Assembly: GCA_964654155.1 (NCBI GenBank)
Contig: CAZZGL010000002.1
Location: 35,902-99,901 of the forward strand
Direction of reading: 5' to 3'
Length of the DNA: 64,000 nucleotides
Source: an uncultured Staphylococcaceae bacterium
GTDB taxonomy: Bacteria > Bacillota_I > Bacilli_A > RFN20 > CAG-826
A program made the translations under genes and the position numbers. Positions within the stretch are counted from its first letter, which is position 1. Each line of letters starts with the position of its first letter. Positions 5,059 to 25,488 of the stretch are shown piece by piece. The notes beneath the pieces were generated by a model. It saw only the letters and a list, made by a program, of their open reading frames with translations, did not search any database and was not told the origin of the DNA.

Positions 5059-5080
5059 ATGATACCCCTATAATGACCAC

Positions 5081-6106
5081 TTAAAATATAAAACAAGCAT
5101 CGCCAAAAGAAAAGAAGCGATATTTTTCCTCAATCGCATGTTTGTAAGCATCTAATATAAATTCTCTTCCCGCAAAAGCGGATACAAGCATAATTAAAGT
5201 TGATTTTGGTAAATGAAAATTAGTAATTAATCCATTAATAGCTAAAAACTTATAACCTGGATAAATAAAAATATCTGTACTTCCTGCACAAGCTCTAAAT
5301 TCACCATATTTTTGCATGACTGATTCAACCACTCTTGTAGAAGTAGTTCCAACAGCAATGATTCTTCTATTTTCTTTTTTAGCTTTATTTAAAATTGCTG
5401 CTGTTTCAGCAGTCATTATATAACTTTCCGAATGCATATGATGATCTAAAATATTGTCCACTTTTACCGGTCTAAAAGTACCTAAACCGATATGTAATGT
5501 CACTTCAACAATCGTAACACCTTTTTCAATTAATTTTTGATTCAACTCTTCAGTGAAATGAAAACCCGCTGTTGGAGCGGCAGCACTTCCTTCATATTTA
5601 GCGTACACAGTTTGATAACGAGAATTATCTTCACATTGTGCTTTTATATATGGAGGTAAAGGCATTTTTCCAAGTTTATCTAATACTTCATAAAAAACGC
5701 CTTGATAATGCATACGGAAATGTCTTATTCCTTCATCTAATACTTTAATACATTCCGCAACTAATTCACCATTACCAAAAATAATATTCGTTCCTAATTT
5801 AATAGTTTTGGCATTACCTGTTAAACATTCCCATTCATCATTTTGTAATTGTTTTAATAACAAAACTTCCACTTTTGCTCCCGTATGTTCTTTAATTCCA
5901 TATAATCTTGCAGGAATTACTTTAGTGTTATTCCTTACCAAAACATCACCAGGTTTTAAGAAATCAATTATATTATAAAATTGATGGTCTTCATAACTTT
6001 TATTTTCACGATCTATCACTAAAAGTCGAGAATGATCTCTTTTTTCACTTGGAGATTGCGCGATTAGTTCTTCTGGTAAATCAAAATCAAAATCACAAAT
6101 ATCCAT
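5081..6106 (-). CDS. queA: S-adenosylmethionine:tRNA ribosyltransferase-isomerase QueA
   Basis: [33 protein letters not shown] is the canonical QueA N-terminus. Start trimmed to the MDIC Met, which abuts the tgt stop. Confidence 0.9.
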
Positions 6107-6107
6107 C

Positions 6108-7250
<1,143 letters not shown>

Positions 7251-7309
7251 TTAAAACAATGTCTATTATAACATAATAAAAAAGCCCTTTTACTTATTTA
7301 TTCGCTTTT

Positions 7310-8602
7310 TTAATTTTCACCGTTATTGCTTAATTCAGATATTCCATCTGTTAATGTTTTCTTGCTTATTTTATTATTAGCCATCATATATCCCACTAGA
7401 AGTAAAACAATCAACAATGTTGGATCTAAATATAAAGGTAATGTATCAGCATATTCTACAAAAACATTTTGTCCATAATTTAAGTTAACATATACATAGT
7501 AATGAATCATAAATGAAAGGATCAAATTCTTTTTTAAAGAGGAATCATTTGAATTTTTGTAATATTTATAAGTAGTCATGATTGCAACAATTGTCAATCC
7601 TACCAAAATTAGAAATGCTGGTATCCCATTTTGAAATAAAGCATCTAAATATATATTTCGAGTATTCATCGTTTCTTTTAATACTTCCTTAGGTTGATTG
7701 CCTAATGGATATTTAAAAACATTTTTTAAAACGTTAATACCAACTTCAACACGAGCAATACTCTTACCTTTCCAAACAACTAAAACTATAGCAAATAAAG
7801 CAAATAATCCTATTCCTAAAAAAATATTTTTTCTTTTCTTTTTATCTTTTGGAAAATTCATAATTAAGGCTGTAATTAACATTGATAAACCAGAAACAAA
7901 AATCCCTAAAAAATATGGAATCAAAATTAAACCCACAACGCCTAAAATTCCTGATGATAACGCTATTTTTTTTAATTTTAATTCACTATCATCAACTTTT
8001 TTATATTTCCATAGAACCATAAAGCCAGAAGATAATAAAGATAATGCATAACCAAAAAAAGTCATATAAACTCGCGATTCTTTTTGAAAAGGATTAGTAC
8101 CTAAAATCCACATTTTTGAAGAAAGCATTACAGAACCAATATTTTCTTCAAGCATATATAAAAGCCCATAACTAAACAAAGTTGCAAACAATGATATTAT
8201 TCCAAAGACAAATAATGTGCCATATATTGCAATTAAATATTTACCAATATTGCTTTCTTTATCGACTCCTAATGTATATCCAATCCAAGATGCACCTAAA
8301 AAACTTAAAACTGCAGGAATAATATCAATAATGCTTATGGCATCGTTTATTGTATAATGAATAATTAAATTAGGCAGTACAGAAACGCCATATAAAAGCG
8401 AAAACGCTAAAAAAATTATAGAAGTGGAATTCAATTTCCTTACATTGCTAAAATATAAAGCTAAGCTAATTAACATTAATACTATTTCAATTATTCGAAT
8501 AATTGTCCCATATGCAAAAAAACTGACATTTAAGGCAATTACAAATTCTAAAACAAATATCAAAAATAATGATTTCAAACTATTTTTATTAATATTATCC
8601 AT
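7310..8602 (-). CDS. Polytopic membrane protein, possibly an O-antigen ligase/polymerase-like or EpsG-like cell-envelope enzyme
   Basis: About 10-12 predicted TM helices. The start sits at MDNINKN behind an AAGGAGGA RBS. The functional call is weak. Confidence 0.35.
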   Translation of the reverse strand: MDNINKNSLKSLFLIFVLEFVIALNVSFFAYGTIIRIIEIVLMLISLALYFSNVRKLNSTSIIFLAFSLLYGVSVLPNLIIHYTINDAISIIDIIPAVLSFLGASWIGYTLGVDKESNIGKYLIAIYGTLFVFGIISLFATLFSYGLLYMLEENIGSVMLSSKMWILGTNPFQKESRVYMTFFGYALSLLSSGFMVLWKYKKVDDSELKLKKIALSSGILGVVGLILIPYFLGIFVSGLSMLITALIMNFPKDKKKRKNIFLGIGLFALFAIVLVVWKGKSIARVEVGINVLKNVFKYPLGNQPKEVLKETMNTRNIYLDALFQNGIPAFLILVGLTIVAIMTTYKYYKNSNDSSLKKNLILSFMIHYYVYVNLNYGQNVFVEYADTLPLYLDPTLLIVLLLVGYMMANNKISKKTLTDGISELSNNGEN

Positions 8603-8619
8603 GCAGAATTTCCTCCTTT

Positions 8620-9549
8620 TTACCAATAGCACCCTTTTTCGACTTTTTGATAACCTTTTGGCTTATTTGTAGGTCTAATCCAATACTCATTAATATATTT
8701 AGAAACATGATCTCGGTTTTCCCATCTTTTGCCAATTATACCAAACATTGTCTGCGTAGCACCACCGGTTTGAATGGCTTGCTTACCAATTTTAGCAATA
8801 TATGAGCATAATAAGCTTCCATAAGCTCCTGCACCAACAAGCGCTATATCAAAATCAATTCTATCAATCTGTTTTTTCATGTATTCTAATGCTTCTTCAA
8901 AGTTATGAAATCTTTCGTCTTCTTGATCCGCTATTGTTTGAACTGCTTCTATGGTTAAAAGTTCAAAATCTGGAACAACATTATCATAAAATAGCTTATC
9001 TTTTATTTTATATTGCATTTCAATATCCTTTGCAAACGGTGATATAACTAACACTTTCTTATGTTGTAATGATTGTATCCAATCACCTCTAAGAGGTTCA
9101 AAAGCTTCATATTGTATTATTTCTAATTGAGAACAATATTTTTTATAAAAATAATCTTCCATATGAATACCAGATATTCCTAAAATAGTGCTTGACGCAA
9201 AAGCCTTCAATGCATGTTGGCTATATAAAGTCAAAGTCTCTTTTGAAACCGGAAATACGCCTGCACCATTTTTAATACTATATCTTACACTTAGTTTATA
9301 ATCTTTTTTAAATCCTAAACATATTTTTTCATAATTATTAATGCAAGAAAGTTCAACTGCTCCAAATCTTATTGCAGAAAAAGGTTTTCCACTTTCAATC
9401 CACTTTTTTAATGCATTATTGCTATATTCTAAAGTAATATTTTTCTTACCTAAAAATTTATTTGTACTTTTTTTCTTTTTAAAAAAGCGCCACATTAAAA
9501 CAAACCAACTATTTTTTATAAAATATCTAAAATACGCTAGTTTTTTCAT
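8620..9549 (-). CDS. Putative GT-D/DUF1792-like glycosyltransferase
   Basis: The SAIRFGAVE and LVGAGAYGSLL...IQTGGA segments resemble the DUF1792 GT-D family. A GAAGGGG RBS supports the internal start MKKLAYF at 9549; the ORF track extends to 9603 with no SD. Confidence 0.35.
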   Translation of the reverse strand: MKKLAYFRYFIKNSWFVLMWRFFKKKKSTNKFLGKKNITLEYSNNALKKWIESGKPFSAIRFGAVELSCINNYEKICLGFKKDYKLSVRYSIKNGAGVFPVSKETLTLYSQHALKAFASSTILGISGIHMEDYFYKKYCSQLEIIQYEAFEPLRGDWIQSLQHKKVLVISPFAKDIEMQYKIKDKLFYDNVVPDFELLTIEAVQTIADQEDERFHNFEEALEYMKKQIDRIDFDIALVGAGAYGSLLCSYIAKIGKQAIQTGGATQTMFGIIGKRWENRDHVSKYINEYWIRPTNKPKGYQKVEKGCYW

Positions 9550-9635
9550 AAGCTTTACCCCTTCATTAATTATACTTTTTAATTCATTAGAATTAAAGCT
9601 CATATTTTATACTATAAATTTTAATATTTATTTGC

Positions 9636-10736
9636 CTATTTATATCGTAAATAACGAATAAACTGTTCATTTAAAGTATATTTTCTATTACTTTTAATTT
9701 CATAATGTTCAATACATCGTGATTTACATCCTCTAATATTTTTTCCAACATAATCATTTAATGTTTGAATACATACAAATCCCTCTTTATTTTTATCTAC
9801 AACAAATATTCCTTCATTGCGATGAAATAAATCTAAAATGTTATTATTATGCATCGACAAATATAATGTTGCTCCATGAGGATTAGTATTTTGATTAATA
9901 AACATTTTTAAAAAGTTTTTTACTACTTGTAAATTAATCGAAGAATCTATTTCATCAATAATTAAAATAGAACCATTTTTTAAAGCAAAATACGCTGTCA
10001 TAAAAAGTAATACACCTTTCAAGGTTCCAAAGGATATAATATTTATCATTTCCGATAATGAAAATTTATGTACTTTCCCATATATTTTTATGAAAAAGTG
10101 CATTTTATCCTCACTAAGCTTTATACCCTCAATTAAAGGTTCAAATATATTAAATATATTTAAAAATATATTTTTATCCATCCGTTCATATAATCTAATT
10201 ATTTTTAAGATAATTTCGCCAGAAGATAATTGCATAATATGAAAAACGGACTCCTTCTGCGTGATTAATTCTTTTTCTTTTTTTAGATGATAAAAATTCC
10301 CATTATATAATGTTGTTGGATGAAATTTTTTAATCTTTTTATACCTTAAATATTGTCTTTTTACTATACAATAAGTAACTTCAAAAGACGCTTCCTTAGA
10401 AGGATAAATATTACAACGATAATTATATAAATAATCGTTTTCTGCTACAAAGATTTCTAAATCAATATTATCCTTTGCAAAATCCAATCTGTTATAGCAA
10501 ATGCGTCTATTATTTAATAATTCATATGACATTAAAATCAATGATAAAACACTTGTTTTCCCTTGTCCATTTCCACCAATGATTGAATTGCATATATTGC
10601 TATAAGTGCCTTGAAAAACATTCAATAATTCACTATCTAGCATTGCTTTTCGTGGAACTTTATCAGAAATAAAATCAATACTAAAATTATCCTTTAATTT
10701 TCTAAATCCAGACACTATAATTTTTAAAATTCTCAC
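9636..10736 (-). CDS. AAA family ATPase (ABC/SMC/RecF-like head, OLD/AAA_21-type), solitary
   Basis: N-terminal ILKIIVSGFRKL, Walker A GGNGQGKTS and Walker B ILIIDEIDSSI. It apparently starts on GTG with no SD. No adjacent partner gene. Confidence 0.6.
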   Translation of the reverse strand: MRILKIIVSGFRKLKDNFSIDFISDKVPRKAMLDSELLNVFQGTYSNICNSIIGGNGQGKTSVLSLILMSYELLNNRRICYNRLDFAKDNIDLEIFVAENDYLYNYRCNIYPSKEASFEVTYCIVKRQYLRYKKIKKFHPTTLYNGNFYHLKKEKELITQKESVFHIMQLSSGEIILKIIRLYERMDKNIFLNIFNIFEPLIEGIKLSEDKMHFFIKIYGKVHKFSLSEMINIISFGTLKGVLLFMTAYFALKNGSILIIDEIDSSINLQVVKNFLKMFINQNTNPHGATLYLSMHNNNILDLFHRNEGIFVVDKNKEGFVCIQTLNDYVGKNIRGCKSRCIEHYEIKSNRKYTLNEQFIRYLRYK

Positions 10737-10804: not shown

Positions 10805-12010
10805 CTAAATCAATGATTTTGAAATTGTTTTAATAACATTAATCATCTTCATAAAATCATTAATATCTAAATACTCTAGTGGACCATGAAAGTTTTCTCC
10901 CCCAGTTCCTAAATTAGGACATGGAATACCTTCAAAAGACAATCTTGCACCATCAGTGCCACCTCTTATTGGCATTTCAATTGGAGTAATATTATTTTCT
11001 TTCATCGCTGATTCAACAATAGAAACTAATTCCATTCTTTCAGCAATTTTTTCCTTCATATTGTAATAGCTATCCTCAATAGATACAGTAACGATTTCTT
11101 CTCCATATTTTTTATTTATAACTCTAGCAATATCGAACATTTTAGTTTTTCTTTGTTCAAAAACATTGCGATCATGATCGCGAATTATGTAACTTAAATT
11201 TGTCAAAGAAACATCTCCATTTATAGATGTTAAATGATAAAAACCCTCATACATTTCGGTGTGCTCCGGTCTCTCTTTTTCTGGTAACATTGATACGAAT
11301 TCTAAAGCCACTAATTGTGCATTAATCATTTTATTTTTAGCAGAACCTGGATGAATACTTTTTCCGTGTACTATTATTTTTGCTGAAGCAGCATTAAAAG
11401 TTTCATAGTTAATTTCACGAATATCTCCTCCATCAACTGTATATGTATAAGCATTATTCGTAGATTCTAAATACCATTTAAAATCGAAATGATCAGTTCC
11501 TGCACCTACTTCTTCATCAGGAGTAAAACATACAACAATATTTGGATGTTCAACTTCTGTATGCATAATATAGTCTACAAAACTCATAATAATTGCTATA
11601 CCAGCTTTATCATCCGCTCCTAAAAGAGTAGTACCATCTGTAACAACTAATTGATGTCCTTCCTTTCCAAGCAAATCTTCTTTTGCTAGTATCATACCAT
11701 TTCCTAAAATAATATCTTCACCATTAAAAGATACAATTTGAGGCTTAATATCTTTACCACTTGCATCGGGAGCTGTATCCATATGTGATATAAGTCCTAA
11801 TGTTTGATTAGAGCTACAATTACTAGGTATTTTTGCGTAAACATAACCATAATCATCTATTCTAGCATTTGTAACTCCTAATGATTTTAATTCATTAACT
11901 AAATATTTTCCTAACTCAAGTTGCTTTAGTGTGCTTGGAAATGTTGTTGACTCTTCTTTCGATTGTGTATCAAATGAAACATATTTTAAAAATCTTTCTA
12001 CCGGTTCCAT
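10805..12010 (-). CDS. pepT: Peptidase T (tripeptide aminopeptidase)
   Basis: MEPVERFLKYVSFDTQS...ISHMDTAPD matches PepT. An AGAGGTGA RBS precedes the MEPVERF Met. Confidence 0.9.
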   Translation of the reverse strand: MEPVERFLKYVSFDTQSKEESTTFPSTLKQLELGKYLVNELKSLGVTNARIDDYGYVYAKIPSNCSSNQTLGLISHMDTAPDASGKDIKPQIVSFNGEDIILGNGMILAKEDLLGKEGHQLVVTDGTTLLGADDKAGIAIIMSFVDYIMHTEVEHPNIVVCFTPDEEVGAGTDHFDFKWYLESTNNAYTYTVDGGDIREINYETFNAASAKIIVHGKSIHPGSAKNKMINAQLVALEFVSMLPEKERPEHTEMYEGFYHLTSINGDVSLTNLSYIIRDHDRNVFEQRKTKMFDIARVINKKYGEEIVTVSIEDSYYNMKEKIAERMELVSIVESAMKENNITPIEMPIRGGTDGARLSFEGIPCPNLGTGGENFHGPLEYLDINDFMKMINVIKTISKSLI

Positions 12011-14887: not shown

Positions 14888-16255
14888 ATGGCAAAAAAAA
14901 GAGATTTAAATTTAGGAGAATTTGAAGCTATATGTGAAGATATATCTTTTGATGGTAAAGGAGTAACTCATTATCAAGGAAAGGTTGTTTTTGTTCCAGG
15001 CTTTTTTCTTAATGAAAAAGCGATTATTCGCTTGGTATATGAAAGAAGCGAATTTTATGCTGGGAAAATTATTAAAATAATCGAAAAATCTCCATACAGA
15101 ATAGAACCAAAATGCAAAATATGTTCTAGTTGTGGTGGCTGTTGCTATCAACAATTAGAATATGCCTCGCAATTAGAATATAAAACTAAAAAGGTTAAAG
15201 ACGCTTTCTTTAAATTTGCCAAAATGAATGTTAATGTTGAACCTTGTATAGGAATGACAGAACCATATTTTTATCGTAATAAAATTCAAATGCCTATCGG
15301 TATATCTCAAAAAGGAAGGATTATTACTGGGTTTTATAAAGAAAAAACCCATGAAATTGTTCCTGTAGATAAATGCTATATTGAAAACGAACAAGCGGAA
15401 GAAGTTTTAAATATAATTAAAGATTTAATGAAAAAATATAAAATATTGCCTTATAACGAGGACACAAGAAAAGGCATTATTCGTCATATCTTGATAAGAA
15501 CTTCATTCCATAAAAAACAAATTATGGTTGTATTAGTAACAAATCAAGATGAATTCGGCGGAAGAAGAGAATTTGTAAAAGCTCTTCATTTAACTTGCTC
15601 ATCGATTACAACAATTGTACAAAACATTAATACCCGTGATACAAATGTCATATTAGGTGAAAAAGAACGTGTTCTGTATGGAAAAGGGTATATTGAAGAT
15701 TCATTATGTGATGTTTGGTTTCAAATATCCGCGAAATCATTTTATCAAATTAATCCTATTCAAACAGAAATTTTATATAATACCGCAATTAAGCTTGCTA
15801 ATTTAAGTGGAAATGAAACTGTTTTAGATTGTTACTGTGGAATTGGAACAATAGGTTTAATTGCTTCTAAATATGCAAAAAAAGTTATCGGTATTGAAAT
15901 TGTTAAAGAAGCCGTTTCTGACGCAATTAAAAATGCAAAAAGAAATAATATTAGCAACGAAACTTTTGTTGTCGGTGACGCAAGTGAGTATATGGTTGAA
16001 TACGCTAAATCAAAAGGAAAAGTTGATGTTTTGTTTATGGATCCACCAAGAAAAGGTTCTGATCAAAAATTTTTAAGTTCTGTATTAACTTTACTTCCTA
16101 AAAAAATCATCTATATTTCTTGTGATCCAACTACTTTAGCAAGAGACATTAAGATTCTTTCTTCTAAATATAAAATAACTAGAATTCAACCTGTGGATAT
16201 GTTTCCAATGACTTATCATGTAGAGACAATCTGTGCTTTAACATTAAATAAGTAA
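14888..16255 (+). CDS. rlmD: 23S rRNA (uracil-C5)-methyltransferase RlmD/RumA family (TRAM + Fe-S + SAM MTase)
   Basis: N-terminal TRAM domain, a CKICSSCGGCCYQQ Fe-S cluster and a C-terminal class I MTase (DCYCGIGT, MDPPRKG). Confidence 0.85.
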   Translation: MAKKRDLNLGEFEAICEDISFDGKGVTHYQGKVVFVPGFFLNEKAIIRLVYERSEFYAGKIIKIIEKSPYRIEPKCKICSSCGGCCYQQLEYASQLEYKTKKVKDAFFKFAKMNVNVEPCIGMTEPYFYRNKIQMPIGISQKGRIITGFYKEKTHEIVPVDKCYIENEQAEEVLNIIKDLMKKYKILPYNEDTRKGIIRHILIRTSFHKKQIMVVLVTNQDEFGGRREFVKALHLTCSSITTIVQNINTRDTNVILGEKERVLYGKGYIEDSLCDVWFQISAKSFYQINPIQTEILYNTAIKLANLSGNETVLDCYCGIGTIGLIASKYAKKVIGIEIVKEAVSDAIKNAKRNNISNETFVVGDASEYMVEYAKSKGKVDVLFMDPPRKGSDQKFLSSVLTLLPKKIIYISCDPTTLARDIKILSSKYKITRIQPVDMFPMTYHVETICALTLNK

Positions 16256-16444
16256 TATCGAATACGCGTTAAAATATATTTAAATTAATTATGTTTCCAA
16301 TCATAAATGATATATTTAAAAATAATAAAAATTTTATTATTTATGTTAGTTTTATAATGTAGGGGAAAAATTAGTAAGATTATAACAATCCCTTCGTTAA
16401 AGCCTTCATTCATTTTTTATGCGATTACCCTAAATAAACAATAT

Positions 16445-16501
16445 TTATTGTATTTTTTTAATTAAGCAAATGATATAATATTCACAGAAAGGCAATATTG
16501 C
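16445..16501 (+). promoter_or_regulatory. Promoter region of the defense operon: TG-extended -10 TGATATAAT (16471-16479), with the 10-bp palindrome GCAATATTGC (16492-16501) just downstream
   Basis: Seen directly. The poor -35 is offset by the extended -10. The palindrome sits at the predicted +1 to +20 region. Confidence 0.3.
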
Positions 16502-16571
16502 ATTATGGCATTTACAAATAAGAATTAATTAGCAAAAAACAAAAAAGAAATTAGTAATAAGAGGGAAAAAC

Positions 16572-17807
16572 ATGGCATTTTACACAAGAGAAGAAGCAAA
16601 GGTTAAAATAGAGACAATTTTGAAAGAACAACATCCACTTAAAACAGGCCAAACATTACCAATCAGAAGTGGAACAAAGTTTAATGTCTATTCAATTCCA
16701 GTAGAATATTTAGCCCCCAATGTTTTAAATGATAGAATAGCTTGGAGAATCAGAGAATTTGAAGCTTCAAATGGTAGAAAACTATCATTCGACTCACCAG
16801 AAGATGTTGAATATGTATACGAATTATTAGAAAAAGAATCTCCAAAAGAAAACGAAAAAACATTAAAAGATTTAGCAGAAAAAGGGCAACAAGTTGATGG
16901 CATCATAACCAAAGATGGAATTATAATTGATGGTAATAGAAGAGCTACTTTACTAAGAAAATTATTTAAAGGAGCTGCTTCAAAGTTCAATAAAAATCTA
17001 GAAGATTTTAGATTTTTTAACGCTATTGTTTTATCAGAAGACATTGATGATAAAGAAATTATGGCATTAGAAACTAGAATTCAAATTGGTGAAGACAAAA
17101 AATTAGATTATAACCCTATTTGTATGTATATTAAAGTTGATAATTTATCCGCAGCTGGATATAATGATCAACAAATTGCCAATTATATGAATATTACAGA
17201 AAGTGATGTAAAAGAAAAAAAAGAGATTTTTAGGTTGATGAATGAATATCTTGAGGCAATTGGGAAGCCTAATCATTATACATTATTAGAAGGGTTAGAA
17301 GATCAATTCATAAATACTAAAACTGTATTTAAAAGAATGGACAACAGAACATATCAAACATATGATTGGGATTACACAGCTGAAGATGTTGCAAATTTTA
17401 AACAAGTTTGCTATGACTATTTAAGAGCGAAATTTGAAGGAAAAAAATATAGGGATGTATTAATTGGAAAGTCTTTTAAAACAAATGGCGTATTTATTAA
17501 AAAAAGTGTTTGGGAAGAATTTTTTGAAAACCACGAAAAAGTAATTAATGATAATAATCCGCAAAATGAAAAAGACTGGGAAGCTCTAGGCAAAAAACAA
17601 TTTGTACAAATTTTAAAAAATGCATCTTTAAAGTTAGAAGAAGTATTAAATGAGAAAAATGTATCATCATTAGTCATAACAATTCAATCAAAAATCAGAA
17701 ATCTTATGGATTGTTTAAATGAAAATAATGAACTAACACAAGAAGACTACAAAATTTTAAAAAAAGCTAACAGTCTATTATGGGATATATTGAAGGAATA
17801 TAAATAA
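16572..17807 (+). CDS. ParB/Srx-superfamily (DUF262/GmrS-like) NTPase-domain protein, first gene of the defense operon
   Basis: The GIITKDGIIIDGNRRATLLRKL motif matches the ParB box II (GxRR) and the DUF262 (DGQQRxT) signature. No HNH/DUF1524 C-terminal domain. The stop overlaps the next gene's ATG (TAAATG). Confidence 0.55.
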   Translation: MAFYTREEAKVKIETILKEQHPLKTGQTLPIRSGTKFNVYSIPVEYLAPNVLNDRIAWRIREFEASNGRKLSFDSPEDVEYVYELLEKESPKENEKTLKDLAEKGQQVDGIITKDGIIIDGNRRATLLRKLFKGAASKFNKNLEDFRFFNAIVLSEDIDDKEIMALETRIQIGEDKKLDYNPICMYIKVDNLSAAGYNDQQIANYMNITESDVKEKKEIFRLMNEYLEAIGKPNHYTLLEGLEDQFINTKTVFKRMDNRTYQTYDWDYTAEDVANFKQVCYDYLRAKFEGKKYRDVLIGKSFKTNGVFIKKSVWEEFFENHEKVINDNNPQNEKDWEALGKKQFVQILKNASLKLEEVLNEKNVSSLVITIQSKIRNLMDCLNENNELTQEDYKILKKANSLLWDILKEYK

Positions 17808-19796
17808 ATGAACGAAGCTATTTGCAAGTTTAAAGATAATATTTTGCTTATTGCCGGTTTACCATTAGATAATCAAAGAAAAATTATGAAAATTAAGCTT
17901 TTTTTAAATCCCTATCAATTGCTTTCATATAGATTTATAGATAACACATTAGAAATAAAATTTATTATTGATGATGCAAACATTATTGTTAAAGAGATAA
18001 ATGAAATCATAAAATTTATTGAAAATGTTTTTAATATAAGTATTTTACTTGACGATAATATTAAAAAAAGTATAGATATACAAACAACCAAAGTTTTAAC
18101 TTTTAATGAAACCATAAAAAAATTAAAATCATTAAAAAATGGCTGCTTAGAAAAATCCGACGAATTTATCAAATACTGTGAATTTTCTGATCGTACTTTA
18201 AAATGTAAATTAAGGTCTTATCAGTATACTGCTTCATATTTTTTAACGATTGGTCAAGGCGGCTTTGATTTTTCTGTCCCTGGCTCCGGAAAAACCATTA
18301 TAACTTATGCTTCATATAATTATTTGAGATATAATAAAATTTGTGATTGCATTTTAATAATCGGACCTATAAATTCATTTAATGCATGGTTTGATGAATA
18401 TGAAACCTGTTTTAATAATCAACCTGATTTTATTTCTTTATCCTCTTACACAAAAAAAGATGCAGAAATATATCTACTATCATCCAAAAATTATCATAAA
18501 GAAATAACCTTTATAAACATTGATAAAGTATGGAGAATGAGAAAAGAATTAATCAATTTTATTAAGAATAAAAATATATTGCTCATAGTAGATGAAGCTC
18601 ATAAAGAAAAAAATCCAAACGCACAAATTACGAAAGCTGTTCTAGAAATAACAAAATATGCAAAATATAGAATTATTCTCACTGGTACACCTATGCCTAA
18701 TGGATACGAAGATTTATTTTCTTTAATGAAAATTTATGAGCCTTATGAAAGAATATTACCGTACAATTACAGTGAATTGGTAAAATTAACAAAAATTGGT
18801 GCAAATAAAGACCAACAAAGTAAAATTATGCAGGCTATCAAACCAATCTATTCTAGGGTATCTAAAGCATATCTATTAAATACCGGAGAATTACTTCCAC
18901 CTAATTACAGATTTATTAAATGCAAATTATCAAATGAACAAAAAGAAATTTATAATTTTTTAAACAAAATGGCATTTCAAATTGAAGACGACTTTAATTC
19001 TATTTTAAATTTGAATTTAATGAAAGCTATATTAATTAGAAAAATGCAAGTTTCTGCAAACCCTGGATTATTATCAAAAAGCATAATCAATTCAATTGAA
19101 GAATATTATGAAGAATATTATGAAGATTTCAATAAAGAAAATTCAGATAATGAAGCTTTATTAAAAGCTGATAATGATATAAAAAAAGCAATCGCAGCAT
19201 CACCAATTGCTAATTTAATATATAAATTTGAATCAGGTTATTACCAATCACAGAAAAATATAATTGCAGTAAATCTTGCCTTAGAATTAGTTTCAAAAGG
19301 GGAAAAAGTTATTATTTGGGATGTTTTTGTTCAAAATATGTATTCTATAAAAAAATTATTAAATTCTAAATCAGACATAGAAATTGAAATAATTAATGGC
19401 ACAATTAGTGGTCAAGATAGGCAAAATGCAATAAATAGATTTAAATTAGGAAACAGCATGATTTTAATTGCAAATCCAGCAACCTTAGCTGAATCAATTT
19501 CATTACATAAAGCATGTCATAACGCTATCTATGTTAATAGAAATTTTAATGCAGCACAATTTATTCAATCAAAAGATAGAATCCATAGAATAAATATGCC
19601 AAAAGAAATAACAGCAAATTATTATTTTATAATTAATGAAGATACCATTGATGAAACTATTCAAGATAGACTTGAATTAAAAGAAAATAGAATGATTAAA
19701 ATTTTAGACTCTGATGAACTTGAAATAGGTGGATCCGAGTTTGAAAATAATTCATTTATGTCTTTGGATGACATTATTTCATCCTTCAAAAAGTAG
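17808..19796 (+). CDS. SNF2-family DEAD/DEAH-box helicase/ATPase
   Basis: Motif I VPGSGKT, motif II LLIVDEAH, motif III ILTGTPMPNG and C-terminal motif VI QSKDRIHRI. Translationally coupled to the upstream ParB-like gene. Confidence 0.8.
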   Translation: MNEAICKFKDNILLIAGLPLDNQRKIMKIKLFLNPYQLLSYRFIDNTLEIKFIIDDANIIVKEINEIIKFIENVFNISILLDDNIKKSIDIQTTKVLTFNETIKKLKSLKNGCLEKSDEFIKYCEFSDRTLKCKLRSYQYTASYFLTIGQGGFDFSVPGSGKTIITYASYNYLRYNKICDCILIIGPINSFNAWFDEYETCFNNQPDFISLSSYTKKDAEIYLLSSKNYHKEITFINIDKVWRMRKELINFIKNKNILLIVDEAHKEKNPNAQITKAVLEITKYAKYRIILTGTPMPNGYEDLFSLMKIYEPYERILPYNYSELVKLTKIGANKDQQSKIMQAIKPIYSRVSKAYLLNTGELLPPNYRFIKCKLSNEQKEIYNFLNKMAFQIEDDFNSILNLNLMKAILIRKMQVSANPGLLSKSIINSIEEYYEEYYEDFNKENSDNEALLKADNDIKKAIAASPIANLIYKFESGYYQSQKNIIAVNLALELVSKGEKVIIWDVFVQNMYSIKKLLNSKSDIEIEIINGTISGQDRQNAINRFKLGNSMILIANPATLAESISLHKACHNAIYVNRNFNAAQFIQSKDRIHRINMPKEITANYYFIINEDTIDETIQDRLELKENRMIKILDSDELEIGGSEFENNSFMSLDDIISSFKK

Positions 19797-19804
19797 GTGT
19801 AACA

Positions 19805-20509
19805 ATGGAAATTAATCAAATAATTCTTTTAAACAACTTATTAAATGAAGAAATTAAAAAATACGAACTCTTTTCTACGAACGAATTAAAGGAAATGCTC
19901 GGTATTGATAAAAACTCCAAAAATCTTAATAGAGTTATTTTTAATAAAATTATTGAATCATCTATCAATAGAGATATACTATTGACATTACTCAAACAAT
20001 GCTCTTGTATTATAAAAACTGTAAATTTAGAATGGAATAATTCATTGAAAGAATCGATGTCATTAAACGTTTTTAAATATTTTGACATATGTAATGAAAT
20101 TTGGGAAAATTCTAAATTATATAAATATTTTATAGAAAATACTTTTGTTTTTGTTGTTTTTAAAAAAGATTTTAAAGGTAGCAAACTGGAAAAAATTAAA
20201 GTTTGGAAAATGCCTAAAAGTATATTAAACTCTGGAGTTAGAGAAACTTGGAGTATAACACAATCTTTAATTAAATCTGGAAAAATTATAAACTACATAG
20301 ATAAAAGAAATCGCTTTATAACATTTTTTCCAACTAGTAGCGAAACTAAATATATTCATGTTAGACCTCATGCACAAAATAGAAATGACACTCTTGAATT
20401 ACCTGTCCCTGATAAACTAACTGGTAAAACAAGATTTATGAAACATAGTTTCTGGCTAAATAGTAACTTTGTAAAGAAAATAATTGTAGAGGACAAATAT
20501 TATGAATAA
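19805..20509 (+). CDS. MutH/Sau3AI-family endonuclease, putative type II REase of a GATC-type R-M
   Basis: The C-terminal YIHVRPHAQNRNDTLELPVPDKLTGKTRFMKHSFWLNSNFV aligns with the E. coli MutH C-terminal arm ([38 protein letters not shown]). NSGVRETWS matches the MutH NSGVTWETS segment. It has a D-x6-E-x2-K candidate catalytic triad. Confidence 0.6.
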   Translation: MEINQIILLNNLLNEEIKKYELFSTNELKEMLGIDKNSKNLNRVIFNKIIESSINRDILLTLLKQCSCIIKTVNLEWNNSLKESMSLNVFKYFDICNEIWENSKLYKYFIENTFVFVVFKKDFKGSKLEKIKVWKMPKSILNSGVRETWSITQSLIKSGKIINYIDKRNRFITFFPTSSETKYIHVRPHAQNRNDTLELPVPDKLTGKTRFMKHSFWLNSNFVKKIIVEDKYYE

Positions 20510-21287
20510 TTTAAATAGACAAGAATTAACAATTATTTTAGCATATTATTTTTTTGATAGCAGAAAAACAACTATTAATACAATGAACTCTTTTAACACT
20601 AGATTTAATTTAACTTTTAAAAAAGATTTTAATACTCAAACACTAATATATTATTGCTCTTTATTTAAAAATATCGATCCTTCATTTAATGCCAAACCAA
20701 TAAATAATGAAGATTTAAGAATTAATGAACTATGGAATTATTATATTGTGCAAGATAGAATAAGTGATTTAAAAAAAATATATAATAGTTTTAAGCAAGG
20801 TCTACTAAAAAAAAGAATAATATCTATTAAAAATGAGGCTGCCGATGATATAAATGAATACATATCTAAAGAAATAAAAAATTTACATTTTACTTTTTTA
20901 GGAGATGAAGCTAAAAATTTATATAATTTGTCATCATTTTCAAGTCAATCACTTCGTGATTTAAACGTTTCCTTTAATGCTTTAAACTTAGCTAAGTTTA
21001 AATGTGAAGTAGACAATAGCCATAAAACTTTTATAAGAAAAAATATTGATATTCCATATACTGAAGGACATCATATAATACCATTGCAATACCAATATCT
21101 ATTTAAATCTAATCTTGATGTAGAGGCTAATGTCGTATCTTTATGCAGTAATTGTCATAATAATCTGCATTATGGAAAAGATTTTGAAGAATTATTAACA
21201 ATAATTTTTACAGATGAAAGAAAAAAAAGATTAGAAAAATGTGGAATAAAAATAACATTAGAAGAACTAATTTCTTTTTATAAATAA
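20502..21287 (+). CDS. HNH endonuclease-domain protein
   Basis: C-terminal EGHHIIPL...NVVSLCSNCHNNLHYG is the canonical HNH/His-Me finger with a zinc-ligand Cys pair. It overlaps the MutH-like gene by 8 nt. Confidence 0.7.
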   Translation: MNNLNRQELTIILAYYFFDSRKTTINTMNSFNTRFNLTFKKDFNTQTLIYYCSLFKNIDPSFNAKPINNEDLRINELWNYYIVQDRISDLKKIYNSFKQGLLKKRIISIKNEAADDINEYISKEIKNLHFTFLGDEAKNLYNLSSFSSQSLRDLNVSFNALNLAKFKCEVDNSHKTFIRKNIDIPYTEGHHIIPLQYQYLFKSNLDVEANVVSLCSNCHNNLHYGKDFEELLTIIFTDERKKRLEKCGIKITLEELISFYK

Positions 21288-21302
21288 AGAAAGGATTATC
21301 CA

Positions 21303-22550
21303 ATGAAAAAAACAGTAGTAGAACTATTCGCCGGTGTAGGCGGATTTAGAGTAGGATTAAATAAAATTAAAAAAATTGATAACAATGGTCAGGCTATTGA
21401 AAATAAAAAATTTAAAATTATTTGGGCAAATCAATGGGAACCATCAACTAAAGCACAACATGCCTATGAATGCTACAAACTAAGGTTTAATTGTTCAGAA
21501 GAAGAATGTTCTAATGTAGATATATCCTTAATTGATAAAAGTTCAATTCCTTCTCACACATTATTATGTGGCGGATTTCCATGTCAAGATTACTCTGTCG
21601 CAAGATCATTAAAAAACGAGAAAGGAATTGAAGGAAAAAAAGGCGTTTTATGGTGGCAAATTTATGAGGTTTTAACTATTAAAGAACCTCCGTTTGTTCT
21701 TTTAGAAAATGTTGATAGATTATTAAAATCACCTTCTAAACAAAGGGGGCAAGCTTTCGGAATTATGTTAAGATGTTTTTATGAATTGGGATATTCCGTA
21801 GAATGGCGAGTCATAAACGCCGCACAATATGGTCACCCTCAAAGAAGAAGAAGAATATTTATTTTTGCATATAAAAATACAACAAAATATAGTAAAAAAA
21901 TGGGAATGTTATCTCTACACGAAATAATAACTTCTAAGGGAATTTTTGCTAAAAAATTTCCTGTTTCAAATTTAAAATATAAAATTAAAGAAATAGATAT
22001 CAAAGATTATAAAAGCTTAATAGATGTTTCTGAAAATTTTAAATTTATTTTTGAAAATTCTGGATATATGAATAATGGCATAATATATACTTTCAATACT
22101 ATTGCAAAAGAAAATAAGCCATTCGTCTTGCGCCAAATTCTTGAGAAGAGTGTTGATGAAAATCTATTTTTATCCCATTATAAAATTAAAAAATTTTCTT
22201 ATTTAAGAAATTCTAAAAAAATATTAAGAACTAGAAAAGAGGATGGCGGGACTTATTATTATTCCGAAGGAGCAATGGCGCCATATGATTCTTTAGATTT
22301 ACCTGGTAGAACTATGCTTACGAGTGAAGGAACAGTTAATAGGAGTTCTCATATAATAAAAGATCCTAATGAAAACAAACTAAGATTTTTATCTCCTATC
22401 GAATGTGAAAGATTGAATCAATTTCCCGATAATTGGACATCAACCATGTGCAATAGGAAAAGATATTTTATGATGGGAAACGCTCTTGTTTGTGGAATTG
22501 TATCAAAACTAGGTAATGAAATTTACAATATTATTAGAGAAGAAGATTAA
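21303..22550 (+). CDS. DNA (cytosine-5)-methyltransferase
   Basis: Motif I ELFAGVGGF, motif IV GGFPCQDYS, motif VI LLENV, motif VIII QRRRRIFIFAY and motif X MGNALV. Confidence 0.9.
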   Translation: MKKTVVELFAGVGGFRVGLNKIKKIDNNGQAIENKKFKIIWANQWEPSTKAQHAYECYKLRFNCSEEECSNVDISLIDKSSIPSHTLLCGGFPCQDYSVARSLKNEKGIEGKKGVLWWQIYEVLTIKEPPFVLLENVDRLLKSPSKQRGQAFGIMLRCFYELGYSVEWRVINAAQYGHPQRRRRIFIFAYKNTTKYSKKMGMLSLHEIITSKGIFAKKFPVSNLKYKIKEIDIKDYKSLIDVSENFKFIFENSGYMNNGIIYTFNTIAKENKPFVLRQILEKSVDENLFLSHYKIKKFSYLRNSKKILRTRKEDGGTYYYSEGAMAPYDSLDLPGRTMLTSEGTVNRSSHIIKDPNENKLRFLSPIECERLNQFPDNWTSTMCNRKRYFMMGNALVCGIVSKLGNEIYNIIREED

Positions 22551-22613: not shown

Positions 22614-22637
22614 AGGCGCTTTAAGCGCTCTTTTTTA
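22614..22637 (+). terminator. Rho-independent terminator after the MTase gene
   Basis: GGCGCT-TTA-AGCGCT stem followed by CTTTTTT. Confidence 0.5.
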
Positions 22638-22731: not shown

Positions 22732-22786
22732 GTAATCTGTAAATCCTAAATATTTAGATTACATTCTTTTATTCAAATGATATAAT
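22732..22786 (+). promoter_or_regulatory. Nested palindromic operator GTAATCTgtaaatcCTAAATATTTAGATTACat overlapping the -35 of a TGATATAAT promoter for the PLD-nuclease gene
   Basis: Outer arms GTAATCT/AGATTAC and inner 12-bp perfect palindrome CTAAATATTTAG. The TG-extended -10 is at 22778-22786, 25 nt before the ATG and an AAGGAGAG RBS. Confidence 0.45.
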
Positions 22787-22810: not shown

Positions 22811-23596
22811 ATGATTAAAACAATTAAAACACCATCCGATAATACTTTTTATACACTTATAAAAGAAGCAAAAAATAGTATATATTTATGTGCTCCTTAT
22901 ATCAAAAAAGATATTGTAGATAAAATTTTATTTCATAAAAAGCAAGGTATCGAAATGATAGTTATAACATCATCAAATATATCAAATTTTATAAATGGCT
23001 CATTAGATGCTTCTGCAATAAAAGAACTGATAAAAAATGATGTTGTTGTTAGAAATTATCAAAAACTACATGCAAAAATTTATATTTTTGATAAAAAGAA
23101 AGCACTTATTACTTCTGCAAATCTAACAAATAACGGATTGTATAATAATTTTGAATATGGAGTGTTAATTGATGATGATACAATAACAGATAAAGTATAT
23201 GAAGATTATATTCAAATGATTAACGACGATCAATGTGGCACTTTTAATGATGCTTTATTAAATAGAGTTTCTAAGATTAAAATTAAGAAAAAGCCCATTA
23301 TTAATATAGATAATGATCACGACGCTATTATTATTGAAAATATTAATAATCTAATTAAAACTATGACTTCTTGGCAAAAAGATGTCTTTTTAATCTTAAA
23401 TCAAATGGCAAATGAATACTTCACAACTTCGGATATCTATTCATACTCTAATGAATTAAAAGCAAAACATCCTCATAACAATCATATAATAGAAAAAATA
23501 AGACAAATATTACAACAATTACGAGATATGGGATTTATTAAATTTCTTGATCGAGGAACTTATAAAAAATTGTGGATTGATAAAAACAAATTTTAA
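22811..23596 (+). CDS. Phospholipase-D-family (HKD) nuclease with a C-terminal winged-helix-like domain
   Basis: Single HKD motif LHAKIYIFDKKKALITSANLTNNG, as in Nuc/BfiI/NgoFVII-type nucleases that dimerise. The C-terminal ~90 aa are predicted helical and wHTH-like. Confidence 0.7.
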   Translation: MIKTIKTPSDNTFYTLIKEAKNSIYLCAPYIKKDIVDKILFHKKQGIEMIVITSSNISNFINGSLDASAIKELIKNDVVVRNYQKLHAKIYIFDKKKALITSANLTNNGLYNNFEYGVLIDDDTITDKVYEDYIQMINDDQCGTFNDALLNRVSKIKIKKKPIINIDNDHDAIIIENINNLIKTMTSWQKDVFLILNQMANEYFTTSDIYSYSNELKAKHPHNNHIIEKIRQILQQLRDMGFIKFLDRGTYKKLWIDKNKF

Positions 23597-23955: not shown

Positions 23956-25278
23956 ATGAATAAAACAAAAATAGACTTAGATTCAATTTATGGATATGCC
24001 TGTGAAAAAGAAAAGCTAAAAAAAATCATTGATGAATTAAATAAAATTAAAACAGATAATACAAAGACAACTATTTATAAATCTGTTATTTTTTGTGGTC
24101 CAAAAGGTAATGGAAAGCACTTATTCGCGCAAGTGTTAGAGAATGAAACCAATTGTCCTCTTTATGAATTATCTCTTAATGATAATTGTGATGAAGATTT
24201 TATCACAAATGTTTTTTCTGAGGCAGCGGATAATAAACCATCAATTATAGTTATTGACGGAATTGATAATCTTATCAAAAGTAATCTCTTAGATAATAAA
24301 AAACATAAAGCGTTATTTACATTAACTAATTTATTATTATATAAAAATAACAATGGTATCATGACCATTTTAAACACAGATAATTTAGATTCTCTACCAA
24401 AAATTTACCTTGGTAATAATAAAAATAAACCCGTTATCAATTTAAATAACCCTTCTTTAAAATCAAGATATAATATAATATCAAAATATATTGCTCAAAC
24501 TACTTTTAGTTTTGAACCTAAGGTTAGTTTTATGGCGAAAGCCACAAAAGATTTTTCTGTTGAAGAAATATTAGTCTTACTTGATACTTGTATGACATTT
24601 TCTTCAAAAGATAACATCGTTTCTATAAAAGTATTTATTGAACAACTTAACAATATAAAATCATTTAATTTTATTATTGAAAGTGACTATAAAAAAGATT
24701 ACGCAATTGCAATTCAAGAACTAGGCAAATTATTTGTAGCGCGCCACTTTAAAAAGGGAATATACGAAATAAACATCGATAGAAACGAACCTTCTTCAGG
24801 AAGCATTTTTAATAATGATATTTTAAATGAAATAGGACCTTGTAAAGATGAATATGATGATTATTATGAAACTCGCCTTAATTCCGTTTTATTCTTTTCA
24901 AGAGATGATTTTGAGAAAATAATAATGGCTAATATAGGTAAAGAAATAGCTTCTGATTTAATATTGAATAACAATTATTCAAACCTTTATTATGACCATT
25001 TAGATCTTTATAGCAAAATTAAATATGCAGTAACTAATGGATTGTATGGAATTAAATTCGCAAATGATTATAGCTACGATTTTAATACCTTAAGAGGAAG
25101 AAAAACTGAAGAAAAAATAGATCAAGTAATTAATGATTTATATGAAAGAACTGAAAAAATTGTAAAAGAATATCTCCCCTTAATAACCACACTTGCCAAT
25201 TTATTAGTTAAAAAAAGACAAATGGATGATAAGGAAATAGAACCAATTATCATTGATTGGTTTAAAAATAATCAATAG
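23956..25278 (+). CDS. AAA+ ATPase with an unknown C-terminal domain
   Basis: Walker A VIFCGPKGNGKH and Walker B PSIIVIDGIDNL. The N-terminal IYGYACEKEKLKKI resembles AAA substrate-recognition lids. The C-terminal ~200 aa have no recognised motif. Confidence 0.65.
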   Translation: MNKTKIDLDSIYGYACEKEKLKKIIDELNKIKTDNTKTTIYKSVIFCGPKGNGKHLFAQVLENETNCPLYELSLNDNCDEDFITNVFSEAADNKPSIIVIDGIDNLIKSNLLDNKKHKALFTLTNLLLYKNNNGIMTILNTDNLDSLPKIYLGNNKNKPVINLNNPSLKSRYNIISKYIAQTTFSFEPKVSFMAKATKDFSVEEILVLLDTCMTFSSKDNIVSIKVFIEQLNNIKSFNFIIESDYKKDYAIAIQELGKLFVARHFKKGIYEINIDRNEPSSGSIFNNDILNEIGPCKDEYDDYYETRLNSVLFFSRDDFEKIIMANIGKEIASDLILNNNYSNLYYDHLDLYSKIKYAVTNGLYGIKFANDYSYDFNTLRGRKTEEKIDQVINDLYERTEKIVKEYLPLITTLANLLVKKRQMDDKEIEPIIIDWFKNNQ

Positions 25279-25290
25279 GAGGTATATAAC

Positions 25291-25488
25291 ATGGATTTAG
25301 AAAACTTATCAATATTGCTACACTATGCCTTTATTTTAAGTTGTGCGATACTTGCTTTATATTTAACTATTAAAATATTTACACAAAAAAGAGTTTCAAT
25401 AGGTTTTTGTCTATTTTTTCTATTTGTTGGTGCATTCTCATTTTTTGGCGAATCCGAACTAAATAGTGTAACAAATAATCATGATTAA
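25291..25488 (+). CDS. Small two-TM membrane protein; the ORF ends at an in-frame TAA and an in-frame open frame continues after it
   Basis: GGAGG RBS and two hydrophobic helices. See the pseudogene entry 25489-25760. Confidence 0.4.
   Translation: MDLENLSILLHYAFILSCAILALYLTIKIFTQKRVSIGFCLFFLFVGAFSFFGESELNSVTNNHD

Follow-up and report, generated by a model that had tools for sequence, protein, structure and literature searches.

A ParB-like protein and an SNF2 motor as the candidate core of a methylation-marked defence cassette in an uncultured Staphylococcaceae bacterium

The window analysed here is a 64,000-nucleotide stretch of contig CAZZGL010000002.1 (positions 35,902 to 99,901; assembly GCA_964654155.1) from an uncultured Staphylococcaceae bacterium, and its subject is a tight operon of five genes, designated A to E, that occupies 16572 to 22550 on the + strand. 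Gene A (16572 to 17807, 411 aa) encodes a ParB/Noc/KorB-like protein and gene B (17808 to 19796, 662 aa) a double-stranded DNA (dsDNA) translocase ATPase of the SNF2 family; both open reading frames (ORFs) lie where an earlier note on this DNA had placed them. They are followed by gene C (19805 to 20509, 234 aa), whose product resembles the C-terminal domain of the restriction enzyme Sau3AI and is predicted to be a non-catalytic reader of GATC, by gene D (20502 to 21287, 261 aa), an HNH endonuclease gene that had been correctly located two genes downstream of the pair, and by gene E (21303 to 22550, 415 aa), which encodes an M.Sau3AI-like C5 cytosine DNA methyltransferase predicted to convert GATC to GAT-5-methylcytosine (GAT-5mC). 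All five genes are on the + strand.

The genes are closely packed. The sequence TAAATG is present at the A/B junction (17805 to 17810), but the stop codon of A (TAA, 17805 to 17807) and the start codon of B (ATG, 17808 to 17810) abut and share zero bases, so that the overlap described earlier is in fact a direct join. A Shine-Dalgarno-like hexamer for B, GAAGGA, is located within the end of A (17792 to 17797), 10 nt upstream of the junction, and the whole junction feature extends from 17792 to 17810 on the + strand. Genes B and C are separated by 8 nt, C and D overlap by 8 nt, and D and E are separated by 15 nt. Only one terminator-like site was found between 16200 and 24000, a hairpin on the + strand (22615 to 22629) with a T-run to 22639 that marks the 3' end of the operon beyond E, and the gene that follows has its own promoter-like site (22758 to 22786). 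The operon has a GC content of 24 to 27%, slightly more AT-rich than the flanking housekeeping genes (30 to 34%); the housekeeping genes metG and rlmD are upstream and other defence genes are nearby. The intergenic region upstream of A contained no convincing palindrome, only AT-rich low-complexity repeats and one short palindrome, AAGGCAATATTGCATT (16489 to 16504); this possible operator has an AT-rich promoter region on one side and the ribosome-binding site of A on the other.

Protein A had no significant match in Pfam (E<=0.01), NCBIfam, PADLOC or the PDB sequences, and a profile of its family found nothing in the PDB sequences. The sole profile hint was ddrB-ParB (E 0.035; 14.7 bits against a cut-off of 27.6), and no curated ParB profile, Pfam ParBc or a related one, was matched above its gathering score. 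Among 43 diverse relatives, weak ddrB-ParB matches were obtained for 22 (best 7.6e-5) and HTH_ParB matches for three. The fold of A was settled only by structure prediction. The AlphaFold model (predicted local distance difference test score (pLDDT) 88.7, predicted template modelling score (pTM) 0.77) resembles ParB, Noc, KorB, Spo0J and sulfiredoxin (Srx) structures, with an alpha/beta N-terminal ParB/Srx domain that would bind a nucleoside triphosphate (NTP) at approximately residues 25 to 155, a helix-turn-helix (HTH) behind it at approximately residues 180 to 230, as in partition ParB proteins, and an all-helical C-terminal region. Each of the first 30 Foldseek matches was to Noc, KorB or ParB, among them clamps with bound CDP or CTPγS, and no DUF262-type structure (BrxU, SspE or GmrSD) was among the matches listed. 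The DUF262 profile (PF03235) did not match A even at E<=10.

The motif peptide GIIIDGNRRATLLRKL, which the earlier note had likened to both ParB box II and DUF262, is present at residues 116 to 131 of A. Within it, D120-G-N-R-R-A125 (codons 16929 to 16946, + strand) is the counterpart of box II (GERRxRA), the phosphate-binding arginine motif of ParB. In an alignment of 43 sequences 22 to 50% identical to A, residues G121, N122, R123 and R124 never vary, and the conservation of D120 is 90% or higher; N50, N53, R55, G116, E167, Q171, Y180, Y226 and R294 are also invariant in these relatives. An hhalign comparison with Bacillus subtilis Spo0J had weak statistics (E 0.098) and collinear motifs: PNVLNDR was paired with PNPYQPR, DGNRRA with GERRFRA, and ALETRIQ..YNPI with LLENLQREDLSPLEE (ENLQRE in Spo0J), with the HTH coming next in both proteins. 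The likeness to ParB has the support of the fold and, weakly, of this alignment, whereas the likeness to DUF262 found no profile support. On the evidence of the model, A belongs to the ParB/Noc/KorB type and not to DUF262: its arginine motif is intact and is followed by an HTH and a helical C-terminal region. As had been noted, Pfam finds no fused nuclease domain in it. ParB itself acts in chromosome segregation, and KorB and Noc act in gene silencing and membrane tethering. A survey of the ParB fold includes binders of CTP, ATP or GTP and gives no sequence rule for specificity (bioRxiv 10.1101/2025.10.10.680097), so which of the three A would use is not predictable from its sequence. No PADLOC v2 defence model was assigned to A, which had one marginal match to a '2TM effector' (E 1.3e-4), and a Bacillus homologue of A had no PADLOC v2 match.

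Protein B is a complete SNF2 ATPase, in agreement with the earlier description. Pfam matches were obtained to SNF2-rel_dom (4e-24), Helicase_C (1.2e-9) and ResIII, with no nuclease domain, and the motor motifs are invariant in 46 homologues: Walker A (G159, G161, K162, T163), DEAH (D262, E263, H265) and motif VI (Q587..R591..R594). No domain was assigned to the N-terminal 130 aa or so. Using the AlphaFold2 model of B (pLDDT 87.4), Foldseek returned ISW1, Chd1, INO80, Mot1, SsoRad54 and ZorD with E values of approximately 1e-20 to 1e-22. B fell below the NCBIfam equivalog cut-offs for ZorD (43.6 versus 1500 bits), DpdE (15.9 versus 500) and DISARM_DrmD (34 versus 610), its PADLOC matches (DpdE models, up to 3.8e-15) span only the shared ATPase core, and the HmaA models in PADLOC did not match it.

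Protein C matched the NCBIfam model restrict_Sau3AI (1e-37) over profile positions 241 to 474 of 475 only, and in the PDB it matched residues 259 to 505 of Sau3AI (4pxg) and the isolated C-domain (2reu) with an E value of about 1e-17. Ten full-length Sau3AI homologues encoded in related loci were split into N- and C-halves for an alignment with C, which matched the C-halves. The MutH-type D..ExK catalytic motif, in the form PDF..(V/I)E(L/I)K, is present in all ten N-halves; neither acidic residue occurs in the C-halves or in any C protein, and C of the window has CSCIIKTV (I-I-K, with no PDF aspartate). The catalytic MutH-like N-domain of a Sau3AI-type restriction enzyme is thus absent from C, and since the catalytic acidic residues are missing, C appears to be a Sau3AI-type reader module without a catalytic centre, predicted by homology to read GATC. 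This would make the HNH protein D the likely cutter. D matched Pfam HNH (PF01844, 6.8e-6) and HNH_2 (7.9e-5) as well as PADLOC mREase_IV (3e-10); its HNH motif is located at residues 183 to 224, and its N-terminal 170 aa contain no characterised domain. D comes directly after C, in the same order, in the C+D-type loci L001 and L003 to L011.

Protein E matched Pfam DNA_methylase (PF00145, 1.3e-62) and PADLOC MTase_II (PDLC03329, 1e-163), and is 45 to 64% identical to the methylases beside full-length Sau3AI homologues in loci L001 and L008 to L014. It is therefore an M.Sau3AI-like C5 methylase of the kind that belongs to Sau3AI-type restriction-modification (R-M), with a predicted specificity for GATC. 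The earlier note had missed both this methylase and the Sau3AI C-domain-like protein and had read the locus as type IV. As the operon contains both, its logic should be modification-blocked, as in R-M, and not modification-dependent; a type IV system has no cognate methylase, and a C5 methylase is present here.

Close relatives of A number in the hundreds (55 to 87% identity, about 411 aa), are all annotated as 'hypothetical', and were found in Candidatus Enterosoma, in Ruminococcaceae and in many metagenomes of gut and rumen. The cassette of A, B, C, D and a methylase recurs in ten GTDB genomes and several contigs, with hosts in Prevotella, Muribaculaceae, Clostridia, Lachnospiraceae, Erysipelotrichaceae, Peptostreptococcaceae and uncultured (RF39-type) Bacilli. 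Two sister loci (L012 and L013) carry A and B, then a methylase gene in the reverse orientation and a Sau3AI of full length (approximately 460 aa), with no C or D, and four others (L001, L008, L010 and L011) carry a full Sau3AI plus C and D with one methylase in common. Methylation of the cytosine in GATC is reported to block Sau3AI (PMC5608340), and the Sau3AI-bearing sister loci tie this clade to GATC and GAT-5mC. Additional genes were observed around two of the cassettes: L001 has a Vsr and an SLFN/DUF2075-type helicase beside its Sau3AI (5008 to 8579), and L013 has a DUF2075-like helicase upstream (8137 to 10011) and a 414-aa ORF downstream (16022 to 17266) that is Mrr-like by eye. These extra defence genes confirm a defence-island setting.

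An exhaustive HMMER search of 1.84 billion cluster representatives with the A family gave 1,048 clusters at E<=1e-3, of which 500 reached E<=1e-10; the family thus comprises about 1,000 clusters at 50% identity. Distant members are 30 to 40% identical and 420 to 480 aa long, some carry the UniRef name 'ParB/Sulfiredoxin domain-containing protein', and they are found in the Bacillus cereus group, which is listed in 381 blocks of the collection index, and in Enterococcus faecalis, Flavobacteria, Cochleicola and prophage contigs. In the B. cereus group, E. faecalis and Cochleicola the cassette consists of four genes, encoding a C5 methylase (535 to 570 aa), an A-like protein, an SNF2 protein and a NOV_C/DUF3883 protein of the PD-(D/E)XK type (290 to 320 aa), and no classical restriction enzyme was found in the examined Bacillus, Enterococcus and Cochleicola cassettes.

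For a census of gene order, 80 metagenome and 32 viral-contig loci were fetched, ORFs were called, and these were labelled by BLASTP against the cassette proteins. The sample of 131 loci with an A gene was reduced to 76 clusters at 90% identity, 64 of which were evaluable. An SNF2 gene was directly downstream of A in the same orientation, no more than 30 nt away, in 62 of these 64 non-redundant loci (97%), a pairing far beyond chance, and a C5 methylase was found within a few genes of A in 56. Fifty loci had enough downstream sequence to identify the gene after B: this was NOV_C in 32, C+D in 7, a reverse-strand methylase in 3 and another gene in 8. In the three reverse-strand loci (L012, L013 and L122) a Sau3AI-type gene comes next. 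The view that A and B form a new defence core pair therefore holds in that the two are tightly coupled, conserved together, located among defence genes, matched by no PADLOC v2 model and described nowhere that we found; it fails in that the pair is not free-standing, being the core of a cassette of four to five genes.

One metagenomic locus (L027) has a TIR-domain protein (10961 to 11992) in the effector slot after the SNF2 gene. The N-terminal 170 aa or so of this protein are homologous to the N-terminus of the NOV_C effectors (hhalign probability 97.7%, E 1.8e-12; hmmsearch 1e-22). Only the NOV_C and TIR effectors have this adaptor in common, and no such shared N-terminus was detected between D or C and the NOV_C effectors (hhalign probability below 1%). 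An adaptor joined to a swappable effector is a pattern typical of defence systems, and the TIR effector would imply a variant of the system that depletes nicotinamide adenine dinucleotide (NAD) or acts by signalling.

Many loci also contain a gene of about 300 to 330 aa just upstream of A that is probably a classical type II restriction enzyme. Two such genes were scanned; the first matched BanI (7e-9) and DpnII (3e-7), and the second matched only DpnII (2.6e-4). The architecture seen most often has the methylase gene immediately before A and overlapping it, and the long methylases at this place in the four-gene cassettes (L015, 7395 to 9011; L020, 424 to 2130) carry a C-terminal extension of about 190 aa with no Pfam match. 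In one protein, P0166, the end of a methylase, the extension and an A-like protein form a single polypeptide of 749 aa. This fusion is weak evidence, because it is a single cluster with a truncated N-terminus and because the genes overlap in relatives, where a frameshift could create it. A separate viral clade was seen on five IMG/VR contigs (L126 to L130), with 29 to 31% identity to A and a type III Res-like helicase of about 991 aa, carrying a C-terminal endonuclease domain, directly before A and B; none of the ORFs listed around A on these contigs was labelled a C5 methylase by BLASTP.

Taken together, these results make it probable, in our judgement, that A and B lie at the core of an R-M-like defence cassette that is methylation-marked and NTP-driven, and the five-gene version in the window probably targets DNA with unmethylated GATC. 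E would mark host GATC as GAT-5mC, as its homology and the pairing of its relatives with Sau3AI-type enzymes elsewhere suggest, and C, which is homologous to the Sau3AI C-domain and has lost the catalytic motif, would read GATC sites that are unmethylated. B, with its motor fold and intact motifs, may then translocate on or loop dsDNA from the GATC site, and D may cut the DNA. The predicted fold of A and the conservation of its arginine motif are consistent with an NTP-gated DNA clamp or switch that might license the complex on foreign DNA or, like type III enzymes in their sliding state, provide long-range communication between sites by sliding; A may also tether or link the methylase to the motor. 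In the wider family, A, B and the C5 methylase are the constant part, with an exchanged effector: NOV_C/DUF3883, the Sau3AI-C and HNH pair, a neighbouring full-length Sau3AI, or TIR. The defence setting is supported by the PLD-DpnI_C and AbiLi-like genes near the operon and by Mrr or Vsr in other loci.

We are much less certain of any particular role for A than of this general R-M-like reading. The more specific proposal, that a ParB/Noc/KorB-type NTP-gated clamp and an SNF2 translocase form an undescribed sensor and motor core of a broad 5-methylcytosine (5mC)-marked immune family, in which the clamp gives site-to-site communication or licensing between the methylase or reader and interchangeable effectors, is put forward tentatively, as one that could well fall either way. 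As far as we know, no canonical-type ParB clamp, with an NTPase domain and an HTH, has been described in a restriction machine before, and A would be the first.

Several observations weigh against an R-M-like core of A and B. Many loci have a complete classical type II R-M pair beside A and B (BanI/DpnII-like or Sau3AI-type), so A and B could be an accessory of that pair or independent of it, and in L012 and L013 they have no dedicated effector. The sequence link between A and ParB is weak, as the E values above show (0.035 for A, 7.6e-5 at best in the family, 0.098 for the Spo0J alignment). The pairing has two exceptions, L002 and L125. In L002 an A protein identical to P0040 (10001 to 11236) stands alone between unrelated genes on a contig of 3.9 Mb, perhaps through mis-assembly or as a relic, and in L125 a longer A-like protein (579 aa, at about 8001) is followed by a 970-aa protein with no match in place of the SNF2 protein. 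The window has fewer GATC sites than shuffles predict (109 against 183 +/- 14; observed-to-expected ratio 0.56), but this is not unique: over the whole window GGCC (0.28), ACGT (0.45) and CATG (0.59) are also strongly under-represented four-base palindromes. As these three are depleted as much or more, the depletion of GATC is only supporting evidence, and the pattern suggests that several restriction specificities have acted on this lineage of 28% GC in the past.

ParB-fold proteins are also known to serve modification. DndB, for one, regulates phosphorothioation, which is a precedent for the strongest rival explanation, namely that A and B act on the modification side, loading, activating or regulating the C5 methylase on dsDNA, with the nucleases as a separate restriction arm. 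Elsewhere the ParB-fold ATPase DpdB is required for base exchange by DpdA (PMC10164549), and the phage protein ParB176 is required by its 5mYOX thymine dioxygenase on dsDNA (PMC13229309); both count against a restriction role for A. The constant partner of A and B is specifically a C5 methylase (56 of 64 loci), it is adjacent to or overlaps A in the commonest architecture and has the 190-aa extension there, the P0166 fusion joins methylase, extension and A, and the classical R-M pairs beside A and B need no helper to cut. We nevertheless regard a modification-side role as unlikely, since an effector gene almost always comes directly after B, and the adaptor common to NOV_C and TIR ties A and B to the killing arm. 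In addition, the methylase in the window is the last gene, three genes from A, ordinary C5 methylases need no motor, and the fusion is a single truncated cluster that may be a frameshift artefact.

We consider it rather improbable that two unrelated neighbours merely share a defence-island address, that is, a GATC R-M unit (C, D and E, or Sau3AI and its methylase) and an independent module of A and B. A and B do occur beside different R-M units, of the Sau3AI type and of the BanI/DpnII type, and defence genes generally cluster in islands. However, the genes of the operon are 0 to 15 nt apart or overlap, with a single terminator after the methylase, a C5 methylase is near A in 56 of 64 loci across phyla, A and B alone have no effector domain, and the examined Bacillus, Enterococcus and Cochleicola cassettes consist of only the methylase, A, B and NOV_C.

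A tool of a mobile element, either a partition module or an anti-restriction, 'polyvalent protein'-like weapon of a phage or conjugative element, seems highly improbable. The one weak Pfam match of A is to the ParB domain of the phage P1 DdrB type, domains of the ParB, SNF2 and methylase kinds act as hubs in polyvalent proteins (PMC5512222), members of the family are present on 32 IMG/VR viral contigs, and L001 adjoins conjugation genes. The earlier note had named a nearby parA and parS-like sites as signs of a partition module. No parA was found among the genes adjoining the operon (neighbours metG, rlmD and SNF2), which is as far as parA was sought in the window, and canonical parS, TGTTNCACGTGAAACA, had no match with two or fewer mismatches; at three mismatches there were eight matches against a shuffle expectation of 1.5, in coding regions far from the operon. 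A partition (ParABS) function of A was rejected on these grounds, and no convincing palindrome upstream of A favours it. The operon is moreover located between housekeeping genes (metG, rlmD) and other defence genes, and the nuclease or TIR effectors, often with a cognate restriction enzyme, fit defence cargo of prophages and not offence.

Least credible of all is a split GmrSD-like type IV enzyme, as suggested in the earlier note, in which a DUF262 NTPase, a separate HNH protein and a helicase cut modified DNA: DGNRR is superficially like DGQQR, an HNH gene is nearby and D matched mREase_IV at 3e-10, but DUF262 gave no match at E<=10, the structural neighbours of A are ParB, Noc and KorB with an HTH, D is an ordinary PF01844 HNH protein (HNH/HNH_2 only) and not the DUF1524 partner of DUF262, no DUF1524 His-Me nuclease being fused or adjacent to A, the HNH is replaced by NOV_C in most relatives, and the operon has its own methylase and a Sau3AI-C-like reader, which, as Sau3AI is reported to be blocked by GAT-5mC (PMC5608340), point to unmodified DNA as the target.

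With an R-M-like core of A and B as the preferred reading, the cassette was compared with known systems, and it appears to be a multi-gene, NTP-dependent, R-M-like defence of a known general kind in which the ParB-clamp component is unexpected. No DUF1998, DUF499 or DUF1156, defining components of the systems compared, was found for the cassette. The Hma system was reportedly described by Payne in 2021. It consists of HmaA (SNF2 and NOV_C), HmaB (a DUF1156 methylase) and HmaC (a DUF499 ATPase), and NOV_C was shown by experiment to be a nickase effector in HmaA (PMC11232893). Our cassette and Hma have in common an SNF2 motor, a DNA methylase, a further NTPase and, in the wider family, a NOV_C/DUF3883 PD-(D/E)XK nuclease; there is also a weak match (1.1e-5) between the separate NOV_C proteins of that family and the C-terminal end of HmaA. 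In contrast to Hma, the SNF2 protein and nuclease are separate, the methylase is a C5 enzyme (Dcm-type, PF00145) and not DUF1156, the NTPase has a ParB fold and is not DUF499, the window variant is without NOV_C, and B has no HmaA match. Class 1 DISARM (DrmD SNF2, DrmMI, DrmA/B, DrmC) and ARMADA are likewise multi-gene and R-M-like, with an SNF2 ATPase and a self-marking methylase. The operon differs from DISARM, which has no ParB-like protein, in having no DrmA/DrmB (DUF1998) helicase and in the score of B (34 bits against the DrmD cut-off of 610), and the neighbouring PLD gene (22811 to 23596) is a separate transcription unit that is not conserved in related loci.

Among the systems compared, only Dpd, a 7-deazaguanine R-M system (PMC10164549), also combines a ParB-fold NTPase (DpdB) with an SNF2-like helicase (DpdE). 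DpdB, however, has DGQQR (DUF262-like), serves the transglycosylase DpdA, and is neither adjacent to nor coupled with DpdE; the modification is deazaguanine instead of 5mC, and the Dpd cluster has about 11 genes. The Sau3AI type II R-M system (4pxg, 2reu) shares its kind of C5 methylase with the operon, its allosteric GATC-binding C-terminal domain is a homologue of C, and full-length Sau3AI replaces or accompanies C and D in sister loci, whereas the window operon is without the catalytic N-domain, would leave cleavage to the HNH protein, and adds the NTP-dependent ParB-like and SNF2 proteins. Type I, ISP and III enzymes similarly combine a methylase that marks self, a superfamily 2 (SF2) motor or switch that hydrolyses NTP and a separate nuclease module, and the type III sliding state resembles the action of a ParB-type clamp. 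The helicase-assisted C5-methylase systems of the CglI/NgoAVII/BceSIV type also have a methylase, an SF2 motor and a nuclease module. In all of these the motor is HsdR or Res and not SNF2, the nuclease is PD-(D/E)XK within Res or PLD and not HNH or NOV_C, and none of them is known to contain a ParB-fold protein. GmrSD, BrxU, SspE and DndB have a ParB/Srx-superfamily NTPase domain in DNA-targeting defence, as A would have; compared with GmrSD, BrxU and SspE, the operon has no DUF262 match, no DUF1524 and a cognate methylase, so its logic would be the opposite, with unmodified DNA as target. In the full-text literature, outside REBASE, current DefenseFinder models and subscription-only papers, no cassette of a ParB-like protein, an SNF2 protein and a C5 methylase was found described, the papers retrieved being reviews of DISARM, ARMADA, Hma, Dpd, BREX and Dnd and a survey of the ParB fold, and the A-B-methylase cassette is apparently undescribed.

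If an R-M-like function is correct, a common cassette of gut, rumen and soil bacteria, with hosts that include B. cereus-group strains and E. faecalis, would be a new class of R-M-like immunity hidden under the annotation 'hypothetical protein', in a family that is large, cross-phylum and present in familiar bacteria. A ParB clamp-type fold and a chromatin-remodeller-type motor would together tell self from foreign DNA, a new job for ParB. A constant core with exchanged readers and effectors could account for barriers to transformation in gut Firmicutes and Bacteroidota that are hard to engineer, and the cassette could be mined for programmable, methylation-sensitive DNA cutters. The prokaryotic partnership of SNF2 and C5 methylase would be reminiscent of eukaryotic DNMT5 and HELLS, providing a bacterial context for how SNF2 motors came to act with C5 methyltransferases.

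Other candidate defence genes were observed on both sides of the operon. Downstream, the first is a gene on the + strand (22811 to 23596) encoding a 261-aa protein in which a PLD/HKD nuclease (PLDc_2, 8.7e-21) is fused to a DpnI_C winged helix (5.3e-25). The C-terminal winged helix binds Gm6ATC in DpnI, and from its domains this protein looks like a methyl-directed enzyme with PLD in place of the DpnI catalytic domain; the island may therefore cover both adenine-methylated and unmethylated GATC. It is followed on the + strand (23956 to 25278) by a 440-aa stand-alone AAA ATPase that is FtsH/proteasome-ATPase-like, with weak IetA matches and no protease domain above threshold, and that could be a defence gene, and then by a 65-aa membrane-like ORF (25291 to 25488). 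The PLD-DpnI_C and AAA genes were rejected as parts of the system, being absent from all related loci and separated from the operon by the terminator. Upstream, a 366-aa AAA_21/AbiEii-type ATPase on the - strand (9636 to 10736) matched PADLOC AbiLi (2.7e-27) and adjoins a 327-aa ORF with no clear match (8620 to 9603), and on these matches a second, AbiL-like system may be located approximately 6 kb upstream of the operon.

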